A program made the position numbers and the translations under genes. Positions 7,713 to 56,304 of a DNA stretch of 64,000 bases are shown piece after piece. Origin of the DNA: an uncultured delta proteobacterium. Its GTDB lineage: Bacteria; Myxococcota; Myxococcia; Myxococcales; Myxococcaceae. Every line of letters begins with the position of its first letter. Position 1 is the first letter of the stretch. The stretch lies in NCBI GenBank assembly GCA_963776345.1, contig CAVZMH010000001.1:1-64000 (forward strand), written 5' to 3'. The notes under the pieces were generated by a model. The model was not told the origin of the DNA, made no database searches, and saw only the letters and a list, made by a program, of their open reading frames with translations.

Positions 7713-9359
7713 TCAGTCGTGCTGCAGATACTGGTGGACGAACGCGATCGTCATGCTTCCTTCGCCGACGGCGGACGCGACGCGTTTGACCTTGCTCGCC
7801 CGCACATCGCCGCAGGCGAAGACGCCGGGGACGCTCGTCTCGAGCAGGTACGGGTCGCGATTGTGCGACCAGCGCCCGGCTTTCACCGTATCGTCTCCGG
7901 TCAGGACATACCCGTGCGCATCACGCGCGATCTCGGTTGGCAGCCACTCGGTCTCGGCGTCGGCTCCAATGAAGACGAAAAGGCCACCGCAGTCATGCCG
8001 GCGCACCGCTTTGCTTGCGTCACGAATGTCTATGGCGGTCAGGTGAGTGTCACCGTAGACCGCCTGCACTTCCGAGCGCAGCTGGACCGCGATGTTCGCT
8101 TTCCCGCGCAACTGCTCAATCAGGTAGTGTGACATGCTCTTCTCCAGGGAATCGCCCCGGACGACGAGCGTCACCTTGCGGGCATAGTTGGAAAAGTAGA
8201 TTGCCGCCTGACCGGCTGAGTTTCCGGCGCCGATGAGGTAGAGGTCGAGTCCATTGGCGGCGCCTGCCTCGCTGCGCGCCGCTCCGAAGTAGAGACCCTT
8301 GCCGAGCAGCCGGTCGAATCCCTCGATCTCCAGGCGGCGCCACCTGACGCCGGCGGCAAGGATGATGGTCCGCGTCCGGACGACCTCATCGCCATCGAGG
8401 AAGACCTCATGCGTCTCCGGATCGATGCGGGTGACGGAGCGCGTGACCAAGATCTCCGCCCCCAGTCGCTTTGCTTGCTGCAGCGCGCGACTCGCAAGCT
8501 CATCGCCCGAGACGCCGCTGGGGAACCCGAGATAGTTCTCGATCCTCGAGGACGTCCCGGCCTGGCCCCCCGGCGCCTCGCGCTCGATACACAGCGTGCG
8601 CAGCCCCTCGGACGCGCCGTAGACCGCAGCAGCGAGGCCGGCCGGGCCGCCGCCGATGATGACGGCGTCGTATTCGGCAAGGCGCGCGCTTGTTTGCAGG
8701 CCGAGGAGCTGCGCAACGTCGCGCGCCTTCGGTCGGCGGAGCACCTGACCGTCGGCGAGCCGCAGCACCGGGCAATCGCCTTCCCCCGGGAGAGGTCCCT
8801 GCCAAAGCGTTTGCAGCGCGGGCGAGTCCGGTGCCACCCAGTCAAAGGTGATCTGGTTGCGGGAGAGGAACCGGCGCATGTCGACGCACGCGGGATCCCA
8901 GCGTTGACCAAACAACGTGACCAGCGGTTTGGGCGCTTGGGCAGAGATGCCCTGCATCCCGCCGATGCGCTCGCGCGCGAGCGCGCTGACCTTCGAGGAA
9001 ACCTCGGGCGATGCCGCCGCGATCGCGAAATACTGCCGGGCCTCCACTCGCATGAGGCGAGACGGTTCTGACGCCCGGTAACCTCCGTAGAACGGCGAGC
9101 CGATGGCGATCGGAATTTCGCCGAAGATGGCGCCGGGGACGCGCCAGCCCAGGGTGCGCTCGACCCCGTCGAACAATCTGACGACCTCCATCTTGCCGGA
9201 GAGAACCGCGAACAGCGCGCGGTCCCCCGCGCCCTCGTGCACGGCGTACTCCCCGGCGCCGAGGTGGATGTCGGCAGACGTCTGCGCGAGCAGCTCGAGC
9301 TGGTCCGTCGCGAGCGTCGAAAACAGCGGGACGGCCCGAACTTCGTCAATCGTCAGCAT
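7713..9359 (-). CDS. cNMP-binding domain + thioredoxin reductase-like FAD oxidoreductase
   Basis: N-terminal cNMP domain (VPLFSTL, FGEIP), GGGPAG, GGQAGTSSRIENYLGFP, GAGNSAG, GDVR...KRVASAVGEG. Confidence 0.92.
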   Translation of the reverse strand: MLTIDEVRAVPLFSTLATDQLELLAQTSADIHLGAGEYAVHEGAGDRALFAVLSGKMEVVRLFDGVERTLGWRVPGAIFGEIPIAIGSPFYGGYRASEPSRLMRVEARQYFAIAAASPEVSSKVSALARERIGGMQGISAQAPKPLVTLFGQRWDPACVDMRRFLSRNQITFDWVAPDSPALQTLWQGPLPGEGDCPVLRLADGQVLRRPKARDVAQLLGLQTSARLAEYDAVIIGGGPAGLAAAVYGASEGLRTLCIEREAPGGQAGTSSRIENYLGFPSGVSGDELASRALQQAKRLGAEILVTRSVTRIDPETHEVFLDGDEVVRTRTIILAAGVRWRRLEIEGFDRLLGKGLYFGAARSEAGAANGLDLYLIGAGNSAGQAAIYFSNYARKVTLVVRGDSLEKSMSHYLIEQLRGKANIAVQLRSEVQAVYGDTHLTAIDIRDASKAVRRHDCGGLFVFIGADAETEWLPTEIARDAHGYVLTGDDTVKAGRWSHNRDPYLLETSVPGVFACGDVRASKVKRVASAVGEGSMTIAFVHQYLQHD

Positions 9360-42831: not shown

Positions 42832-43384
42832 CCCGGTCGGGGTCTACACGCGCTCCGGTCGGTCCGCACGCTCGCCGCCCGCCGGGGTGCCGGCCGCCGA
42901 GTGCCAGACACGTCGGGCGTGGGCCTCGAGGGGAAGCAGATGCTCGGCGCCGCCCGGGCCGGACGGCCCCGCCCACCAACTGAGACGCGCTGTGCGAGTG
43001 AGGCCCTCGTAACTGCCTGAGCCGTCGAAGCCCAACTTCCCTCAGTAGTTGTTGCAATCGCCTCTCGTGCCTCGGAGCGGCTCCCCGGGCGGACCTCGCG
43101 ATGCTGGGCGTCCGCCGCACGGCCCCTCGCGCGACGCAGTGGCCGCCGTGTCCACCCGCCTCGGTGGGTGGCCTCGGCCAGGCACGAGCGTGCCCGGGCG
43201 GCTGACCTCCGGCCCTTTCGGCGTTCTCCCCGGGGCGCTGCGGCCCTCGGTCGCCCCGCTCGGGCCGAGTCCGCGGCCTCGGCCAAGAAATTGGCCTGCC
43301 TGCTCGGCGAGACACCGGCCTCAGCCTGCCCTCCGAGGGGTGCAGGGTCGTGGTCCTCCTGTTAGCACCGCACCTCCCCCCTCC

Positions 43385-48655
<5,271 letters not shown>

Positions 48656-49121: not shown

Positions 49122-49946
49122 ATGGCCACCCTGGCGCACACCCGGTTGACGGAGGGTCCACGGGCGCCGGAGCGCTGGGTGGTGTTCCTCCACGGGCTGC
49201 TCGGGCGAGGCGGAAACTGGCGCTCCTTCGGCAGGAGGTGGGTGGAGACACACCCGACCTGGGGCGCGGTGCTCGTCGACCTGCGTCTCCATGGCGACTC
49301 GCGCGCTGGCTTCGCTCCACCCCACACGGTGCGCGCTGCGGCCGACGACGTCCTGGCGCTGGTCGAGGCGCTTCCCGGCGGGGTGGAGGCGCTGGTGGGA
49401 CACTCGCTGGGCGGGAAGGTGGTCCTCGCCGCGCAGCGCGCGAGCCACCAGCGCTTCCCGCGCGCGGTGGTGCTCGACGCCTCCCCGTCAGCCCGCCCGG
49501 AGGGGCTCGGGTCCGAGCAGACCCGCGACGTGCTCGCGCTGCTCGCCAGGCTCCCGCGGGAGTACGCCACCCGCACCGAGTTCGTCGCCGCGGTGGAGGC
49601 GGGCGGGCAGCCCCGGGCCATCGCCCAGTGGCTCGCCATGGCGCTCGAGCCCGGCGGGCGTGGATTCCAGCTCTCGCTCGACTTACCGGGGCTCGAGTCC
49701 CTCTTCCGGAGCGTGCTCGCCGAGGACGACTGGGACGTGGTGACCTCGGTCCCGTCCGGTCACCGGCTGGCGTTCGTGGCAGGCGGCAGCTCCGGCGTGG
49801 TCGAGCCCGCGGCGCGCACCCGGCTCGGGGCGCTCGGGCCGAGTGTGACCTTCGAGGAGGTTCCCGGCGCCGGCCACTGGCTCCAGGTGGACGCGCCCGA
49901 CGCCACGTTCTCCGCGGTGGAGCGGGCGCTCTCCGAGCGCTCCTAA
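49122..49946 (+). CDS. Alpha/beta hydrolase (YbfF/ABHD11-like)
   Basis: LHGLLG..GNW, DLRLHG, GHSLGGK, AGHWLQVD. Confidence 0.9.
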   Translation: MATLAHTRLTEGPRAPERWVVFLHGLLGRGGNWRSFGRRWVETHPTWGAVLVDLRLHGDSRAGFAPPHTVRAAADDVLALVEALPGGVEALVGHSLGGKVVLAAQRASHQRFPRAVVLDASPSARPEGLGSEQTRDVLALLARLPREYATRTEFVAAVEAGGQPRAIAQWLAMALEPGGRGFQLSLDLPGLESLFRSVLAEDDWDVVTSVPSGHRLAFVAGGSSGVVEPAARTRLGALGPSVTFEEVPGAGHWLQVDAPDATFSAVERALSERS

Positions 49947-51277
49947 CGGGGCGCCCAGCCGAAGAAGAGGTGGCAGAGGCTGGTCGCGGCGACGTAGCCG
50001 GCGAGGTCCGCCGCCAGGCACGCCACCAGCGTGTGGCGGAGCACCCGGACCTGCACGCTCCCGAAGTACACCGCGAGCACGTAGAAGGTGGTCTCGGTCC
50101 CGGCGTTCAGGAGGCACACCAGGTAGCCGACGAACGAGTCCGGGCCGTGGGTCCTCATCGTCTCGCTCATCACCCCCAGCGCGCCGCTCCCGGACAGCGG
50201 CTTGATGAGCGCCATCGGGAGCGCCTCGGCGGGGAAGCCGAGCCGCGAGGTGAGGGGAGAGAGCAGGCCGGTCAGCGCATCCATCGCCCCGGAGGCCCGG
50301 AACATGGCGATGCCCACCAGGATGGCCACCAGGAAGGGGATGATGACGATGGCGATCTGGAAGCCTTCCTTCGCGCCGGCGATGAAGACCTCGTAGACCT
50401 TCACCCGCCGGGCGATGCCGAAGAGCATGATCGCCAGCATCAGCGCCGGGATCATCCACTCGCTCATGAAGGTGCGGACCAGGTCGAATCCCGAGTGCTC
50501 CGGCTGCAGGCGGAAGCCCCCCCGCACCGCGGCGGCCACGAAGAGCGCCAGGAGCCCCAGCGCGAACGCCCGCCGGCCTGGGCTCGCCGGCGCGTGCGCC
50601 TCGGCCAGCTTCTCCGCGGTGGCCAGGGCCGCCGCGTCCGGTCCCTTCGGCGCCGCGCCGGCGGCGGGGAGGGGCTCGACGGTGTAGCGGTCGGGACGGA
50701 ACCGGGCGCGCCGCTCGAGGAGCTTCGCCACCAGCACCGCGGTCAGCGCCGCCGACAACGTGGAGAGGAACGAGGGGAGGACGATGCCCGCCGGATCCTT
50801 CGACCCGAGCGCGGCGCGCACCGCCACCGCGCCGAGCGGGAGGATCGCCACGCCGGCCGCGTTGATCGCCAGGAACAGCGCCATCGAGTTGGTCGCCACC
50901 CCCGGGTTCGGGTTGAGGGTGTTGAGCTCCGCCATCGCCTTGAGCCCGAACGGCGTGGCGGCGTTGCCGAGCCCGAGCATGTTCGCCGAGAGGTTGAGGA
51001 TCATCGACCCCATCGCGGGGTGATCCTCCGGGACCTCCGGGAACAGCCGGCGCATGAGCGGGCGCAGCCCCCGGGCGAGCGACCGCATCAGGCCGCCCTC
51101 CCGGACGATGCCCATCATCCCCAGCCAGAGCGCCATCTGGCCGACCAGCCCGATGGCGAGATCCACCGACGCCTTGGCGGCCGTCAGCGAGGCCTCGGTC
51201 ACCCGGGGCATGGTGCCGCGAAAGGCCGCCGTGAGGACGGAGCCCACGACGAGGACGAAGAAGATGCCGTTGAGCAC
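49943..51277 (-). CDS. SpmA/SpmB fusion (nucleoside-recognition gate domain membrane protein)
   Basis: ANMLGLGNAATPFGLKAM; KPLSGSGA, TETTFYVLAVYFG. Confidence 0.9.
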   Translation of the reverse strand: MLNGIFFVLVVGSVLTAAFRGTMPRVTEASLTAAKASVDLAIGLVGQMALWLGMMGIVREGGLMRSLARGLRPLMRRLFPEVPEDHPAMGSMILNLSANMLGLGNAATPFGLKAMAELNTLNPNPGVATNSMALFLAINAAGVAILPLGAVAVRAALGSKDPAGIVLPSFLSTLSAALTAVLVAKLLERRARFRPDRYTVEPLPAAGAAPKGPDAAALATAEKLAEAHAPASPGRRAFALGLLALFVAAAVRGGFRLQPEHSGFDLVRTFMSEWMIPALMLAIMLFGIARRVKVYEVFIAGAKEGFQIAIVIIPFLVAILVGIAMFRASGAMDALTGLLSPLTSRLGFPAEALPMALIKPLSGSGALGVMSETMRTHGPDSFVGYLVCLLNAGTETTFYVLAVYFGSVQVRVLRHTLVACLAADLAGYVAATSLCHLFFGWAPR

Positions 51278-51444
51278 GGGGGCTCCGCACCCTAGCAGCG
51301 CGCCCGGACGCCACCCGCTGCTCGGGGGGTGCACCGAATGCAGCCAGCCGCCCCGTTCCGGTCGCCGGACGGGGAACGGCCGGTTTGCCGCTCCCGAGGC
51401 CCGCGAGTTACAGTTTCCCGGCCGTTTCCCCTCGGGAGACTGCG

Positions 51445-53284
51445 ATGGCTCGAGAGGCCCTACCAGGAGAGGTGTATCGACCAGCGTCCCCGGGCGGACG
51501 CACGGCGAGCGCCACGCCTGACGACGGGGTCGGGGGGCCGGTCCCGAGGCTGCCGCGCGGGGCGACCCTGGGCCGGTACGTCGTCCTGGACTGCCTGGGC
51601 AGCGGGGGGATGGGGGTCGTCTACCGGGCCCACGACTTCGCGCTCGACCGGCGCGTCTCCCTGAAGCTGCTCCGCTCCTCGGGGAAGGACCCGGAGGCCC
51701 GGCGCGAGCGCCTGGTGACCGAGGCCCAGGCGCTGGCCCGGGTGTCCCATCCGAACGTCCTGGCGGTGCACGACGTCGGCACCTGGGAGGACGAGGTCTA
51801 CCTCGCCCTGGAGCACGTGGAGGGCGAGACGCTCCTGAGCTGGCTCGACCGCGCGCCGCGGACGCCGGCCGAGATCCGCGGGATGTTCCTCCAGGCCGCG
51901 CGCGGGCTGCAGGCGATCCACGATGCGGGGCTGGTGCACCGGGACGTGAAGCCCGAGAACCTGCTCGTCGGGCGCGACGGGCGGCTCCGGGTGGCGGACC
52001 TCGGGCTGGCCATCACCGCGGGGAGCGGCGGATCGGCGCCGGCCCGCGAGACGCTGCGGCCCGGGACGCCCGGCTACATGCCGCTGGAGCAGCACCGGGG
52101 CGAGGCGCTCGACGCGCGCGCCGACCAGTTCAGCCTCGCGGTGGCGCTCTACGAGGCGCTGCTGGGCCACCGTCCGTACGGGAGCCGCGGAGCCTCGCGC
52201 GAGGCGCTCGAGGAGCGGCTGGCGCGCGGACCCGGAGTCGACGTGCCGCGGTCGGGCGCCGTCCCCCCGCGGTTGCACCGGGCCCTCACCGCGTCTCTGA
52301 GCCCGGACCGCGACCGGCGCCCGGCCTCCCTCGCTCCGCTGATCGACGCGCTCACCTCCCCCGGTCTGCCGGCGCCCCGCAGCCTCGGAGGCTACGTCGC
52401 CGTCGGCGCCTCGCTGGCCGTCCTCCTGCTCGCCATGGCGCGCGGAAACGCGGCGCCTCTGGCCTCCGCCGAGGCGGCGCCCTGGCTCCCGCCCGCGTAC
52501 GAGTTCCAGGCCGAGGGGGTGGAGCCCGCGGCCCCGGCGGTCCTCGGCGCGGCGCTCCCGCCCGCCGCGCCCGGAGCGACGCTCCGCGAGGCGGCGTCCT
52601 CCGTCCGCAGCGGCCCGGCGTCCGCCTCCGCCCCGTCGCTCGCCCCACCGACCTCGGCCGCGGTGGTCCGGCCCGAGACGCTGGTCATCGGCCGGCGCGC
52701 GCCGTCCGCCGAGGTCTCCCCGTCGCCGCCCCGCGCTCCGGGCCTCGACCTGGACCGTCTCGCCGAGCTGCGCAGCCTGGTCCAGGCGCTCTACCGCGCG
52801 CTGACCGAGCCCCGGGAGGGCAGCGCCCAGGGGCCGCTCCTCGCGCTCTCGCCCGTGCCGGGCATGTCCTCGCCGAGCGGGGTCCCGTCGACCCCGGCCC
52901 CGGTCCAGCTGGCGTCGGCCGGGCTGAGCGGTGGCTCGGGGCCGGACTGGGTGGACCCGACGGGGCAGAGCATCGCGGCGATGGAGCGCCGGCTGGACCA
53001 GCAGATCCGCCAGAACCGGAGCCCGCCGGAGATTGCCCAGACGCGCTTCGCGCTCGCGCAGGCCATCTGGGACTCGAGCGACGCGGTCGACGCGCAGAAC
53101 CGCGCCCTGACTCTCGCCCGCGAGAGCAAGGCGGCGCTCGACGCGGTGACCAACGACGACTCGAGCGTGGTCGAGCTGCGCCAGGCGGTGAACGACTGGA
53201 TCTCGACGCGCGAGGGGCCGGTGGGCAAGCCCGGGGGCCCGCGTCTGACCTTCCAGCACGCCCAGCTCAAGCTGGAGTCGTGGA
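51445..53284 (+). CDS. Ser/Thr protein kinase with TM segment and C-terminal extracytoplasmic region (reads through into the next gene as given)
   Basis: LGSGGMGVVY, VSLK, HRDVKPEN, DLG, GTPGYM.LEQ, DQFS; TM VAVGASLAVLLLAMA; TGGA at 53281 would be TGA with one G fewer. Confidence 0.8.
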
Positions 53285-53298
53285 CTCCCGTCGCTGAC

Positions 53299-54678
53299 GT
53301 GTCTCGCCCCAACGCCACGAGGTCCGAGACCGATGGACGGCCGTCGTCCCGGCCCGCCCGGTCCAGCCAGCTGGTGGCCGCGCTCTCCTGCGACCGGCCG
53401 CTCGAGCCGCCGCGCGCGGTCGACCTGACGGGAGCCTCCGAGGTCTGGCTCGGCCGGTCGCCGCCCGAGGCTCCTCCCGGCGTCGTCCGGCTCAGCTTCG
53501 CGGACGAGCGGATGTCGGCGCTCCATGCGCGGCTGCGGCGGGTGCTCGGGCGCTGGGTGGTGGAGGACGCCGGCAGCAAGAACGGTCTGCGCGTGCAGGG
53601 GACCCCGCAGCGGCGGGCGGTGCTCGAGCCCGGCGACTCGATCGAGTGCGGGCAGACGTTCCTGGTCTTCGAGGAGCACCCGCGCGGGGACGACCCGCCG
53701 CCCTCGCTCCCCCCGGGCGCCGCGGAGCTCGGGTGCCAGAGCTTCCATCCGGAGCTCCTCGCCGCCTGGTCGGCGCTGGCCCGGGTGGCGCCCACCCGCG
53801 TGCCGGTGATGCTCGAGGGCGAGACCGGCACCGGGAAGGAGCTGGCCGCGCGGGCGCTGCACGTCTGGTCCGGCCGGTCCGGCCCCTTCGTGGCGGTGAA
53901 CTGCGGCGCGCTGCCCGAGCACCTGGCGGAGAGCGAGCTGTTCGGCGTCCGTCGGGGCGCCTTCACCGGGGCGGTCGAGGACCGGCCGGGGCTGGTCCGT
54001 GCCTCGAGCGGCGGGACGCTGCTCCTCGACGAGGTGGGGGAGCTTCCCGCCGCGCTGCAAGTGAAGCTCCTCCGCGTCCTTCAAGAAAACGAGGTGCAGC
54101 CGGTGGGCGCGGCGCAGCCGGTCCGCGTCGACCTGCGCGTCGTCACCGCCACGCACCGCGACCTCTCCGCGCTGGTGGAGGAGGGGACCTTCCGGAGCGA
54201 CCTCTTCGCGCGCCTCACCGGGCTCTTGGTGGAGCTGCCGCCGCTGCGGGACCGCCGCGCCGACCTCGGGCTGCTGGTGCCGGCGCTGCTCCGGCGGGCC
54301 GGCGCGCCGCCGGCGGTCCGCATCTCCCGCGAGGCAGCGCGGGCGCTCTTCCGCTGGAGCTGGCCGCACAACGTCCGCGAGCTGGAGAAGGCCCTGGCGC
54401 TCGGGGTGGCGCTCGCCGGCGACGGGCGCATCGAGCTCGCGCACCTGCCGGAGGTCTTGCGCACCGCCCCCGAGCCCCGGCCGGACGCGATGGCCAGCCG
54501 CGGCGACCGTCCGCTGAGCGACGCCGACGTGACGCGCCGGACCGAGCTCATCGAGCTGCTCCGGGCGCACCACGGGAACGTCAGCGCGGTGGCGCGCCAG
54601 ATGGGCGTGGCGCGGATGCAGATCCAGCGGTGGTGCCGGCGGTTCCACCTGGACCCGGCGAGCTTCCGCGCCGCCTAG
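53299..54678 (+). CDS. FHA-domain sigma54-dependent enhancer-binding protein
   Basis: FHA (LGR, MSALHA, DAGSKNG), Walker A GETGTGKE, GAFTGA, LLDEVGE, WPHNVRELE, C-terminal HTH. Confidence 0.9.
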   Translation: MSRPNATRSETDGRPSSRPARSSQLVAALSCDRPLEPPRAVDLTGASEVWLGRSPPEAPPGVVRLSFADERMSALHARLRRVLGRWVVEDAGSKNGLRVQGTPQRRAVLEPGDSIECGQTFLVFEEHPRGDDPPPSLPPGAAELGCQSFHPELLAAWSALARVAPTRVPVMLEGETGTGKELAARALHVWSGRSGPFVAVNCGALPEHLAESELFGVRRGAFTGAVEDRPGLVRASSGGTLLLDEVGELPAALQVKLLRVLQENEVQPVGAAQPVRVDLRVVTATHRDLSALVEEGTFRSDLFARLTGLLVELPPLRDRRADLGLLVPALLRRAGAPPAVRISREAARALFRWSWPHNVRELEKALALGVALAGDGRIELAHLPEVLRTAPEPRPDAMASRGDRPLSDADVTRRTELIELLRAHHGNVSAVARQMGVARMQIQRWCRRFHLDPASFRAA

Positions 54679-54695
54679 CGAGGAGCCGGGGGCGC

Positions 54696-54750
54696 GGGGT
54701 GCAACACCCCGAGGTGCAACACCCCCCGGGGGTGCAACGTGTTGCACCCC
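54696..54750. promoter_or_regulatory. Enhancer-like array of four GGTGCAAC boxes (three direct, one inverted)
   Basis: GGTGCAAC at 54698, 54713 and 54731; GTTGCACC at 54741. Confidence 0.7.
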
Positions 54751-54793
54751 GTCCGCTGGTACCGATGTCCCAGGCGATTTGCCGCCCACGGCC

Positions 54794-54809
54794 CGGCACG
54801 CCGACTGCA
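54794..54809 (+). promoter_or_regulatory. Sigma54 (-24/-12) promoter
   Basis: CGGCACGCCGACTGCA: GG-N10-GC spacing, matches TGGCACG-N4-TTGC. Confidence 0.7.
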
Positions 54810-54819
54810 CAGGCAGGGG

Positions 54820-54903
54820 AGCGACGTCGAGGCGGCCCGCCGTCCTGGGGCCACGGGGCGCCGTGGGTTCACTCTCCCCTCCCCACGGCGCCTCGTTTTT
54901 TTT
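54820..54903 (+). ncRNA. Candidate sigma54-dependent small RNA (~85 nt)
   Basis: Lies between the sigma54 promoter and an intrinsic terminator; no ORF with RBS; two hairpins, the second with a 14-nt pyrimidine loop. Confidence 0.55.
54854..54903 (+). terminator. Rho-independent terminator
   Basis: 14-bp stem CGGGGCGCCGTGGG/CCCACGGCGCCTCG, loop TTCACTCTCCCCTC, then T8. Confidence 0.85.
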
Positions 54904-54904
54904 G

Positions 54905-55711
54905 TCAGTAGCTGTCGCTGGAACCGCCGCCGCCGCCCTCGCCACCGCCGCCGCCGGAGAAGCCGCTCCCACCGTCTCCGCCTCCGCCGAAGCCGCCACC
55001 TCCGCCTCCCCAGCCGCCGCCGTCTCCCCCACCGCCCCAGCCGCCCCCGATGAACGGCGGGCCGCCCCAGTAGGTGCGGCGACGCGGGTGCCGGCTCGCG
55101 CGAAGGAGGAGCATCAGGACGACGAAGAGGATGAAGCCCCAGAAGCAGAGGTCGAACCAGTGGGGCAGCACGACCGGGGGCTGCTGCCAGTCGGGCGGGC
55201 GCTGGCCGGCAGGACGGCGCGTGGTGCCCGAGCCCGAGAGCGCCTCGGTGATCCCGTCCACCCCCGCCAGGATCGCGTCGTGGACCCGCTCCTGTCGCAT
55301 CAGCGGGGCGATGCGCCGCCGGATGATGTCGTTCGACTGGAGGTCGGTGAGGTCTCCCCCCACGCCCTTGCCGGTCTCGATGCGGATGCGGCGCTCGCCG
55401 GTCGCGATGACCAGGACCACGCCGTTGTCCTTGCCCTTCTGTCCCGGGCGCCAGGTCTGGATGAGCTGGTACCCGACGTCCTCGATGGGCTCCCCCTCCA
55501 GCGAGGGAGTCACCAGGACGAAGATCTGCTTGGTGGTGCGGCGCTCGTAGTCACCGAGCCGGTTGTTGAGGTCCGTCAGCTCCGCCTGGCTGAGCAGGCC
55601 CGCGGTGTCGGTGACGTAGTCGGTCTGCTTCGGGACGTTGAAGGCCCGGGCGGAACCGGCGACGAGGAGGAGCAGGGTCGCGCAGAGCGGGCCCCAGGCC
55701 CGCGCCCGCAT
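54905..55711 (-). CDS. TPM domain protein (YgcG-like)
   Basis: YVTDTAGLLS, GQKGKDNGVVLVIA..ERRIRIETG; TM; Gly-rich tail GGGGSSDSY; start overlaps the lemA stop. Confidence 0.9.
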   Translation of the reverse strand: MRARAWGPLCATLLLLVAGSARAFNVPKQTDYVTDTAGLLSQAELTDLNNRLGDYERRTTKQIFVLVTPSLEGEPIEDVGYQLIQTWRPGQKGKDNGVVLVIATGERRIRIETGKGVGGDLTDLQSNDIIRRRIAPLMRQERVHDAILAGVDGITEALSGSGTTRRPAGQRPPDWQQPPVVLPHWFDLCFWGFILFVVLMLLLRASRHPRRRTYWGGPPFIGGGWGGGGDGGGWGGGGGGFGGGGDGGSGFSGGGGGEGGGGGSSDSY

Positions 55712-56304
55712 CAGAAGGTCACCTTGGGCGCCTGCGTGGCGTCCGCGGAGGCCTGGAAGTACACCCGCGGCTTGAACGTGCCGCCCGTGACGCGCTTCAC
55801 CACTGCTCCGCGGATCTTCCCGAGCTCGGTGTTGTAGTCCCGCACGGCGTCGTTGTACTGCTCGCGCGAGCGGAGGATCCGGTTCTCGGTGCCCTCGAGC
55901 TGGACCTGCAGGTCGTGGAACTGGGCATTGGCCTTCAGATCCGGGTAGGCCTCGTTCACCAAGAGGAGCCGTGAGAGCGCGCCCTTCAGCTGGTCCTGGG
56001 CCTTCTGGAAGGCGGCGACCTTCTCCGGATCCTGAAGGTCCTCGGCGCTGAGCGTGATGCCGGTCGCCCGGGCGCGCGCCTCCGCGACGTCGGTCAGCGT
56101 CTTCTCCTCGTGCTGGGCCGAGGCTTTCACCGTGGCCACCAGGTTGGGCACGAGGTCCGAGCGGCGCTGCAGCTGGGCCTGATAGTCCGCCCACTTCGCG
56201 TCGCAGACCTGATCCTTGGCGATCAGCTGGTCGTACTGGTTGCAGCCGGCCAGGGCGAACAGTCCCACGGCGGCCACGAGGGAGATGGGGGCGCGGGTCG
56301 TCAT
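55711..56304 (-). CDS. lemA: LemA family protein
   Basis: QRRSDLVPNLV.TVK, EAYPDLKA, LEGTENRI...YN. Confidence 0.92.
   Translation of the reverse strand: MTTRAPISLVAAVGLFALAGCNQYDQLIAKDQVCDAKWADYQAQLQRRSDLVPNLVATVKASAQHEEKTLTDVAEARARATGITLSAEDLQDPEKVAAFQKAQDQLKGALSRLLLVNEAYPDLKANAQFHDLQVQLEGTENRILRSREQYNDAVRDYNTELGKIRGAVVKRVTGGTFKPRVYFQASADATQAPKVTF

Follow-up and report, generated by a model that had tools for sequence, protein, structure and literature searches.

We examined a 64,000-nt stretch of DNA (the window) from an uncultured member of the Myxococcaceae (contig CAVZMH010000001.1), in which a gene for a membrane Ser/Thr kinase is followed by one for a sigma54 activator with a forkhead-associated (FHA) domain and then by an intergenic region with a predicted small RNA (sRNA). 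With a probability of about 0.55, we read this unit as an sRNA controlled by the kinase and the FHA activator, which would act independently of Hfq and whose loop would block ribosome-binding sites of the type GAGGGGAG. The anatomy of the unit, its conservation and its complementarities are observed. They support a dedicated sigma54 transcription unit without protein output, apparently under strong selection, in which the loop is likely the active part. The RNA belongs to an undescribed family that is unrelated to the myxobacterial sRNA Pxr and stands in a layout of a known type (pxrR-pxr).

The enhancer-like boxes of the original prediction were found right behind the activator stop codon (TAG, 54676–54678), with GGTGCAAC boxes beginning at 54698 and 54713 and a palindrome at 54731–54748. 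This four-box array is the sole cluster with more than two boxes among the 17 TGCAAC/GTTGCA clusters of the 5.1-Mb genome. The proposed sigma54 promoter, CGGCACG-CCGA-CTGCA, is likewise present; the 5.1-Mb genome contains 18 copies of the strict sigma54 motif. Across 25 distinct orthologous loci the −24/−12 letters are unchanged, the next 15–17 nt vary freely at a fixed length, and the spacing of promoter and boxes is constant. From the usual spacing between sigma54 promoters and their starts, we infer that transcription begins at 54820. A further motif between enhancer and promoter, GCTGGT..TGTCCCAG, which is kept just partly in the 79% clade, is possibly the site of a DNA-bending protein.

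To relate the boxes to the activator, we scored 56 of 80 metagenomic relatives, dropping duplicates and loci with fewer than 230 bases past the stop. At least two TGCAAC boxes past the stop accompany 22 of the 24 activators with the helix ARMQ[IV]QRW, compared with none of the 32 with other helices, several of which carry different repeated boxes instead. Close kin account for 16 of these 24; of the six distant activators, four have the boxes. The TGCAAC boxes therefore most likely belong to the activator of the window. As an observation in its own right, nine activator relatives (L353, L364, L368, L374, L376, L378, L380, L385, and L013) have their own repeated boxes and a sigma54 promoter directly past the stop, followed by short protein genes, and the box sequence shifts along with the helix-turn-helix (HTH) helix. 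These relatives form a natural set for a recognition code.

No start codon with a later stop lies inside the predicted RNA of ~80–84 nt, in agreement with the claim that this transcript makes no protein. The RNA ends in a terminator hairpin that lacks a U run on the minus strand. Its T8 tract and the abutting stop of the convergent TPM gene are as first described, but the stem, given as 14 bp, has 15 bp with one G-U pair. Since there is no terminator between the activator stop and the hairpin, the hairpin probably also ends read-through of the kinase-activator mRNA. Its loop is the largest among 106 terminator-like hairpins collected with our own script, and the 14-nt size and the conservation of this loop set the hairpin apart from a plain terminator with a short, freely varying loop. 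The large pyrimidine-rich loop of the original prediction was thereby confirmed, while its target had to be revised: the loop differs from the 16S anti-Shine-Dalgarno (anti-SD) tail GAUCACCUCCUUUCU and complements the variant site GAGGGGAG. The fold z-score of the full 86 nt is just −2.4, and pairing the invariant 5′ block in an alternative fold would cost 13 kcal/mol in stability. A search of Rfam, Pxr included, gave six matches with E values of 0.15–9, all far under the cut-off and none meaningful. A REP-like or other mobile repeat was rejected, as the intergenic region is single-copy in the genome.

Conservation was evaluated in 31 close loci (24 metagenomic, 7 genomic; some are redundant contigs), 29 of which reach the RNA. 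A 48-nt core and the loop UUCACUCUCCCCUC are each identical in 28 of these 29, which represent 16 distinct RNA sequences; the 4-fold codon sites of the activator are 49–89% identical (mean 57%). Boxes, promoter, and RNA were kept in all 10 loci of the genus with sequence past the activator stop, the contig of an eleventh ending 11 bases past it. The intergenic alignment called for by the original prediction thus shows promoter, boxes, and loop retained, but stem covariation appeared only across genera. In an alignment of 16 hairpins (A6), double changes affect 11 of 15 stem pairs, a score reached by 0 of 500 shuffles. Most of the 16 loops keep CUCCCCU, and the core CUCCCCU(C) persists on differing stems. 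A covariance model built on 10 sequences matched 41 of 151 family genomes at E ≤ 0.05, with scores above 100 bits solely within the genus. In 151 Myxococcales genomes a loop-plus-U pattern, which would miss tails of the type seen in the sister-genus genome G128, gave hairpin-like matches solely in the genus. A relaxed stem-loop pattern found at least 120 loci in GTDB, among the matches listed mostly unrelated high-GC taxa, and an activator search of one of 64 parts of GTDB was dominated by generic activators.

The sister genus illustrates a second arrangement. In G128 (locus L094) the same Gate-kinase-activator block is followed by an operon of two genes, the first of them TonB-dependent-receptor-like, with boxes and a sigma54 promoter in front; past this operon come a terminator, a second box array, a second promoter, and an RNA of ~110 nt with the same loop on a changed stem. 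L347 and L346 share this layout, the RNA having its own box array and promoter behind the operon terminator, which separates the RNA promoter from the upstream genes. The convergent neighbor differs from the TPM gene. Two further genomes of the sister genus gave no activator match and an RNA match of at most 21 bits. In the genus of the window there is no receptor operon at the locus and the RNA alone is kept; this layout could have been derived from the sister layout by losing the operon between the two box arrays. For the sister genus, an incoherent feed-forward loop is predicted, in which the activator would drive both the receptor operon and an RNA matching the leader of that operon. The receptor-operon terminator itself (L094:2379–2468 and L346:11833–11922) also has a loop that is large and conserved; the CCCCUCC within it may be another, 3′-derived copy of the seed.

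The loop also occurs in other settings. In L082 and L083 protein genes terminate in near-identical hairpins, the hairpin RNA stands alone behind another promoter in L084, and in L556 the loop sits on an unrelated stem. As a separate observation, L082, L083, and L084 share a promoter-like element, GGCAG...TTTGTCAC.CCTGCC. What follows it is the hairpin RNA by itself or a gene for a secreted protein with the loop hairpin at its end; the element was not found in the genome of the window (G000). In genus g12 (L066, L073, L076, L081, and L088), hairpins with CUCUCCCC(U) loops stand at the ends of genes for extracytoplasmic function (ECF) sigma factors; the homology of these hairpins to the RNA is uncertain.

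The loop-based target search proposed at the outset gave one specific candidate. The 29-nt receptor leader of L094 forms 14 contiguous Watson-Crick pairs with the loop and the adjacent stem, equaled by 0 of 20,000 shuffles, and the perfect 12-mer complement occurs twice in G128, in the RNA gene itself and in this leader. In G000, by comparison, the free-energy ranking was a diffuse list without a clear winner, the best contiguous sites being 10–11 nt. A class of targets is nevertheless suggested by the start regions of G000. Genes with a complement of at least 7 nt near the start have a predicted signal peptide in 49 of 140 cases (35%), or 45 of 133 after collapse of paralogues, compared with 16.5% of genes overall and 22% of GGAGG genes. 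When the 671 heptamers of start regions are ordered by their share of signal-peptide genes, GAGGGGA (22/48) and AGGGGAG (19/47) come first and second, a result equaled with 6 of 3,000 shuffled loops. In the genus, 17 of 24 paralogous receptor-gene loci, which are kin, have GAGGGG right before the start, compared with 3.8% of G000 genes. A sample of the RNA-less genome G075 (1.2 of 9.0 Mb) was without the bias, with signal peptides in 3 of 28 complement genes. No match to the Hfq family was found in the window's genome, which is 98% complete, and this fits pairing from a pre-exposed loop. Feedback of the RNA on the kinase leader was set aside, as the conserved GGGAGA there pairs over just 6 nt and the site lies within a hairpin.

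Taken together, these data suggest the following course of events. The single-pass kinase would sense a cue from outside or from the envelope, envelope state being a guess from kinase topology and target class, and would alter the activity of the FHA activator via phosphothreonine. The activator would then bind the TGCAAC boxes, open the sigma54 promoter, and start the ~80-nt RNA, whose pre-exposed terminator loop would seed pairing on start regions of the GAGGGGAG type and thereby reduce the translation of mRNAs for exported proteins, including TonB-dependent receptors. That the RNA is transcribed at all is highly probable. Phospho-control through the FHA domain is a reasonably well-favored prediction from the domain content, and base-pairing repression by the loop is favored slightly less.

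Several results weigh against this reading. Transcription of the RNA is a prediction from sequence, and the coupling of kinase and activator is drawn from gene adjacency and domain logic. An RNA run (X24) that may not contain the organism gave no coverage of the RNA and counts for neither side. The invariant 5′ block (54824–54837) has no place in this reading; it is similar to the Pxr 5′ end and complements the 3′ arm of the terminator. Within the genus the stem is too invariant for covariation (0 of 20 pairs). The 16-hairpin alignment was chosen by and fitted to the model, so that it leans towards structure, and its weaker members may be non-homologues. With regard to targets, the L094 match requires partial opening of the stem and could be a trace of duplication. 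In L346, from a second sister species, the longest run in the leader is 7 nt (5,602 of 20,000 shuffles as good) and the loop duplex has a two-base bulge (53 of 3,000 as good), modestly above chance; the receptor leaders of G000 complement just 6–7 nt and share a common origin. Rough scripts of our own supplied the gene starts and signal peptides. A sample of G021 (0.8 of 9.0 Mb), in which the RNA model finds no RNA, gave signal peptides in 9 of 27 complement genes overall and in 9 of 14 with AGGGGA (p 5e-4), and a small sample of the RNA-bearing G007 (0.4 of 5.5 Mb) gave 3 of 12. The difference between G000 (49/143) and the pooled RNA-less samples (12/55) is not significant (p 0.12). The exported-protein bias may predate the RNA, and its dependence on the RNA is open to doubt. 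That AGGGGA near the start marks signal-peptide genes in the G021 sample (L462–L501) is of interest by itself; it may be a wider trait of some myxobacteria or a sign of another RNA.

The mixed outcome of this target-class control also fits the main alternative, a real sigma54 sRNA whose loop binds a protein or sponges an RNA with a purine-rich seed, without blocking ribosome sites. We consider this clearly less probable than blocking, though it deserves attention. The near-total invariance of stem and loop within the genus would suit a protein surface. Precedents exist: fepA is repressed by the terminator loops of SdsR, RseX, and ArrS, seemingly with no base pairing involved (PMC11979758), and CrfA is a sponge (PMC12559287). 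Against this alternative, the stem varies across genera around a constant loop core, and the unique 12–14 nt complement sits in a leader behind the same activator.

It is improbable that the region is just a terminator with a promoter left over from a lost receptor operon, the hairpin serving only to end the mRNA from upstream and to shield it from the convergent TPM operon. The receptor operon present at this place in the sister genus is in line with such a loss, as are the activator relatives, which usually drive a protein gene, and an RNA seen so far as a prediction. However, termination by itself would not require a 14-nt loop to stay invariant, a disused promoter would not have survived where 4-fold sites are down to 57% identity, and the sister genus has the RNA unit on top of the operon, not in its place.

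The relationship to Pxr was evaluated with 26 Pxr loci retrieved with the published probe, from which a profile was built. In G000 this profile hits contig C21, away from the locus of the window. The Rfam Pxr model (RF01812) gave 38–48 bits, under its cut-off of 80, in 12 of 13 genus genomes, with C21:14849–14958 as the sole G000 match. Identity of our RNA with Pxr was rejected: there is no model match, no pxrK/pxrR upstream, and the RNA is ~80 nt with the loop on the terminator. A diverged Pxr paralogue doing the job of Pxr under a new regulator is the least probable of the alternatives, since the alike layout (sigma54 activator gene, promoter, RNA), the C-rich loops opened by GGUUC, and the similar 5′ UCGA(A/G)GCG are outweighed by the lack of any Pxr match in Rfam at E up to 10 or with the 26-locus profile, by a best score of 12 bits and nothing significant for the new model on Pxr loci, by the separate Pxr-like RNA in those 12 of 13 genomes, and by the position of the loop, on the terminator here and on the first stem in Pxr. 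Regarding the Pxr-like RNA of G000 (L085), its context as read in that genome is not behind pxrR, and its upstream region looks like a sigma70 −35/−10 rather than a sigma54 promoter; it is possibly a Pxr outside the PxrK/PxrR circuit.

The original prediction did not recognize its architecture from earlier descriptions. The activator-then-sRNA layout is known from M. xanthus, where pxr lies directly behind the activator gene pxrR (PMC5684412, PMC5568312, PMC10217877, PMC11928866), whereas the kinase/FHA input was not found described: the literature searched, mostly without subscription papers, holds no description of an sRNA with a Ser/Thr kinase and an FHA activator as its drivers. The two systems share the Myxococcaceae host, an sRNA behind a sigma54 activator, an enhancer and −24/−12 promoter (read from motifs in our case), a C-rich loop, and direct targets that are largely unproven, those of Pxr being still just predicted in 2025 (PMC11928866). 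By the same accounts Pxr differs in its input, a histidine kinase and a receiver-type activator, and in its form, 108 nt with three stem-loops and the C-rich loop on the first, compared with one strong hairpin here.

A likeness in working logic alone links the RNA to the cuckoo/alpha-r14 sRNAs and NfeR1, whose anti-SD-like loops silence translation start regions, with periplasmic proteins among the confirmed targets; NfeR1 is repressed by NtrC and activated by LsrB (PMC4615179, PMC10746234). An invariant anti-SD-like loop on freely varying stems, in multiple copies, is common to both. Those alphaproteobacterial RNAs carry CCUCCUCCC in the loops of 2–4 adjacent hairpins, compared with a single CUCUCCCCUC loop on the terminator here, and membership was rejected on the grounds of the one loop UUCACUCUCCCCUC and the lack of an Rfam match.

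Sigma54 activators with an RNA as main output are familiar from the sRNAs Qrr (LuxO), CrcZ (CbrB), and NrsZ (NtrC). Their input is a histidine-kinase phosphorelay, unlike here, and their sequences are unrelated. M. xanthus reportedly has FHA-domain enhancer-binding proteins (Jelsbak et al. in 2005) of the order FHA-AAA-HTH beside a Ser/Thr kinase gene, with protein genes as outputs; in our case the sole box-rich promoter of the genome drives no protein. SigmaE-dependent RNAs, among them MicL, offer a further comparison. The RNA arm of that response, RybB and MicA, lowers outer-membrane protein synthesis (PMC1804206), and OmrA/B, OxyS, SdsR, RseX, and ArrS act on fepA or fhlA, OxyS pairing through its terminator loop (PMC11979758). 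The resemblance lies in a signaling pathway whose RNA arm lowers outer-membrane or TonB-dependent proteins and in a terminator loop that can be active. Those RNAs are Hfq-associated, enterobacterial, and under sigmaE or two-component control, as opposed to an RNA without an Hfq match in its genome and with a predicted envelope role.

The coordinates of the unit and of its neighbors are collected in Table 1.

Table 1. Features of the kinase-activator-RNA unit and flanking genes (positions in the window).
Feature	Position	Strand	Basis
Membrane Ser/Thr kinase gene	51445..53297	+	Pfam Pkinase E 7.5e-38
FHA - sigma54 AAA+ (GAFTGA) - HTH enhancer-binding protein, 459 aa, GTG start one base past kinase stop	53299..54678	+	Pfam FHA, Sigma54_activat, AAA_lid_14, HTH
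Predicted enhancer: two GGTGCAACACC boxes and palindrome GGTGCAAC-GT-GTTGCACC	54698..54748	+	Kept in 10/10 genus loci
Conserved motif GCTGGT..TGTCCCAG between enhancer and promoter	54755..54773	+	Invariant alignment columns; single copy in genome
Predicted sigma54 −24/−12 promoter CGGCACG-CCGA-CTGCA	54794..54809	+	Motif, conservation
Predicted small RNA, ~80–84 nt	54820..54903	+	Conserved 5′ block GUCGAGGCGGCC, weak 5-bp hairpin, terminator hairpin
Intrinsic terminator, 15-bp stem, U8	54853..54903	+	Stem arms 54853–54867 / 54882–54896 (one G-U), T8 54896–54903
Exposed 14-nt loop UUCACUCUCCCCUC, predicted seed; complement GAGGGGAGAGUGAA	54868..54881	+	Unpaired probability ~0.9 or more
Convergent TPM-domain gene (LemA-TPM operon), neighbor outside the module	54905..55837	−	Pfam; stop at 54905
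Divergent Gate-domain membrane gene, conserved synteny marker, also in sister genus	49943..51334	−	Pfam Gate

The kinase shows an N-terminal Hanks-type domain with G-rich loop, VSLK, HRDVKPEN, and DLG motifs, one hydrophobic segment (~52387–52443, judged by eye), a Pro/Ala linker, and a C-terminal helical domain. An atlas search of its tail gave, at the level of a lead, TPR-like look-alikes at 0.86–0.89 and none at 0.9 or above. The activator combines FHA, sigma54 AAA, and HTH domains without a receiver domain, which fits an FHA-type enhancer-binding protein; the GR, SxxH, and NG positions, which we take to be the FHA consensus, are present, and GAFTGA occurs in four of six aligned activators, with GAYTGA in the other two. 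Orthologues with 87–91% identity were found in 10 of 12 other genus genomes, the two genomes without one being 68% and 75% complete. Identity to PxrR is 41%, in the AAA-HTH part only.

Both domain sets of the predicted kinase and activator were therefore recovered, but in the window they read as one open frame (51445–54678, 1,077 codons) with all four Pfam domain types inside (kinase, FHA, sigma54 AAA, HTH). This fusion is a 1-nt deletion that is absent from the lineage. An extra base after 53280 is present in contigs from seven of seven sequencing runs with near-identical DNA and restores the kinase stop at 53295–53297, which is out of frame in the window. None of the 10 orthologous loci of the genus has a fused frame; in eight the kinase stop lies one base before the activator GTG, and in two the kinase frame ends short of that stop. 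A kinase-activator fusion protein was rejected on these grounds. The deletion is likely an assembly error, with a private mutation as the alternative, because other genes of the same assembly are also split, for example two receptor genes. Single-base losses relative to independent runs occur at 53280 and 54706 of the window, and the split receptor genes are at G000:C14:80881–84079 and G000:C22:226821–229738. This suggests indel errors across the G000 assembly, and fused or broken genes there need care.

Two further observations concern other loci. Behind a paralogous FHA activator with the helix ARMQ[IV]HRY, 53–54% identical and with a kinase gene in the same locus (L354 ~2830–2930, L356, L369, and L399 ~9010–9110), there are TGTCAC/TGTAAC boxes and a promoter of the sigma54 type, and then another conserved non-coding candidate, which differs from the RNA of the window, forms two hairpins, and has a terminator and a purine-rich loop. 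This module was not found in G000, and it suggests that kinase-FHA-activator-sRNA modules arose more than once. Elsewhere in the window, 43049–48655 holds a very long open reading frame (1,868 aa as listed) whose translation, the sole basis for this call, looks UvrA-like and contains repeated ABC modules.

Pxr is the myxobacterial sRNA found characterized in the literature searched, and the new RNA would be a second, unrelated family, within the limits of uncultured soil hosts, a narrow range of two genera, and evidence at the sequence level. A bolder picture, which we regard as doubtful, is that a eukaryote-type Ser/Thr kinase pathway has this one tiny RNA as its sole output. The RNA would read a variant ribosome-binding code, GAGGGGAG, on exported-protein mRNAs and make up an envelope response without Hfq; its loop would be a 3′ module that can be moved between genes and is reused under three or more other promoters, and a paralogous FHA activator would have an unrelated RNA of its own. 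With its defined regulator, a predicted site that tracks the regulator helix, one exposed seed, and one specific target candidate, the family permits a direct test of sRNA action in a genome without an Hfq match. It would link Ser/Thr phosphosignaling to RNA regulation and provide an output for one of the many myxobacterial FHA activators. Should the target class prove correct, mRNAs of one functional class would be addressed through their very ribosome-binding sequence.

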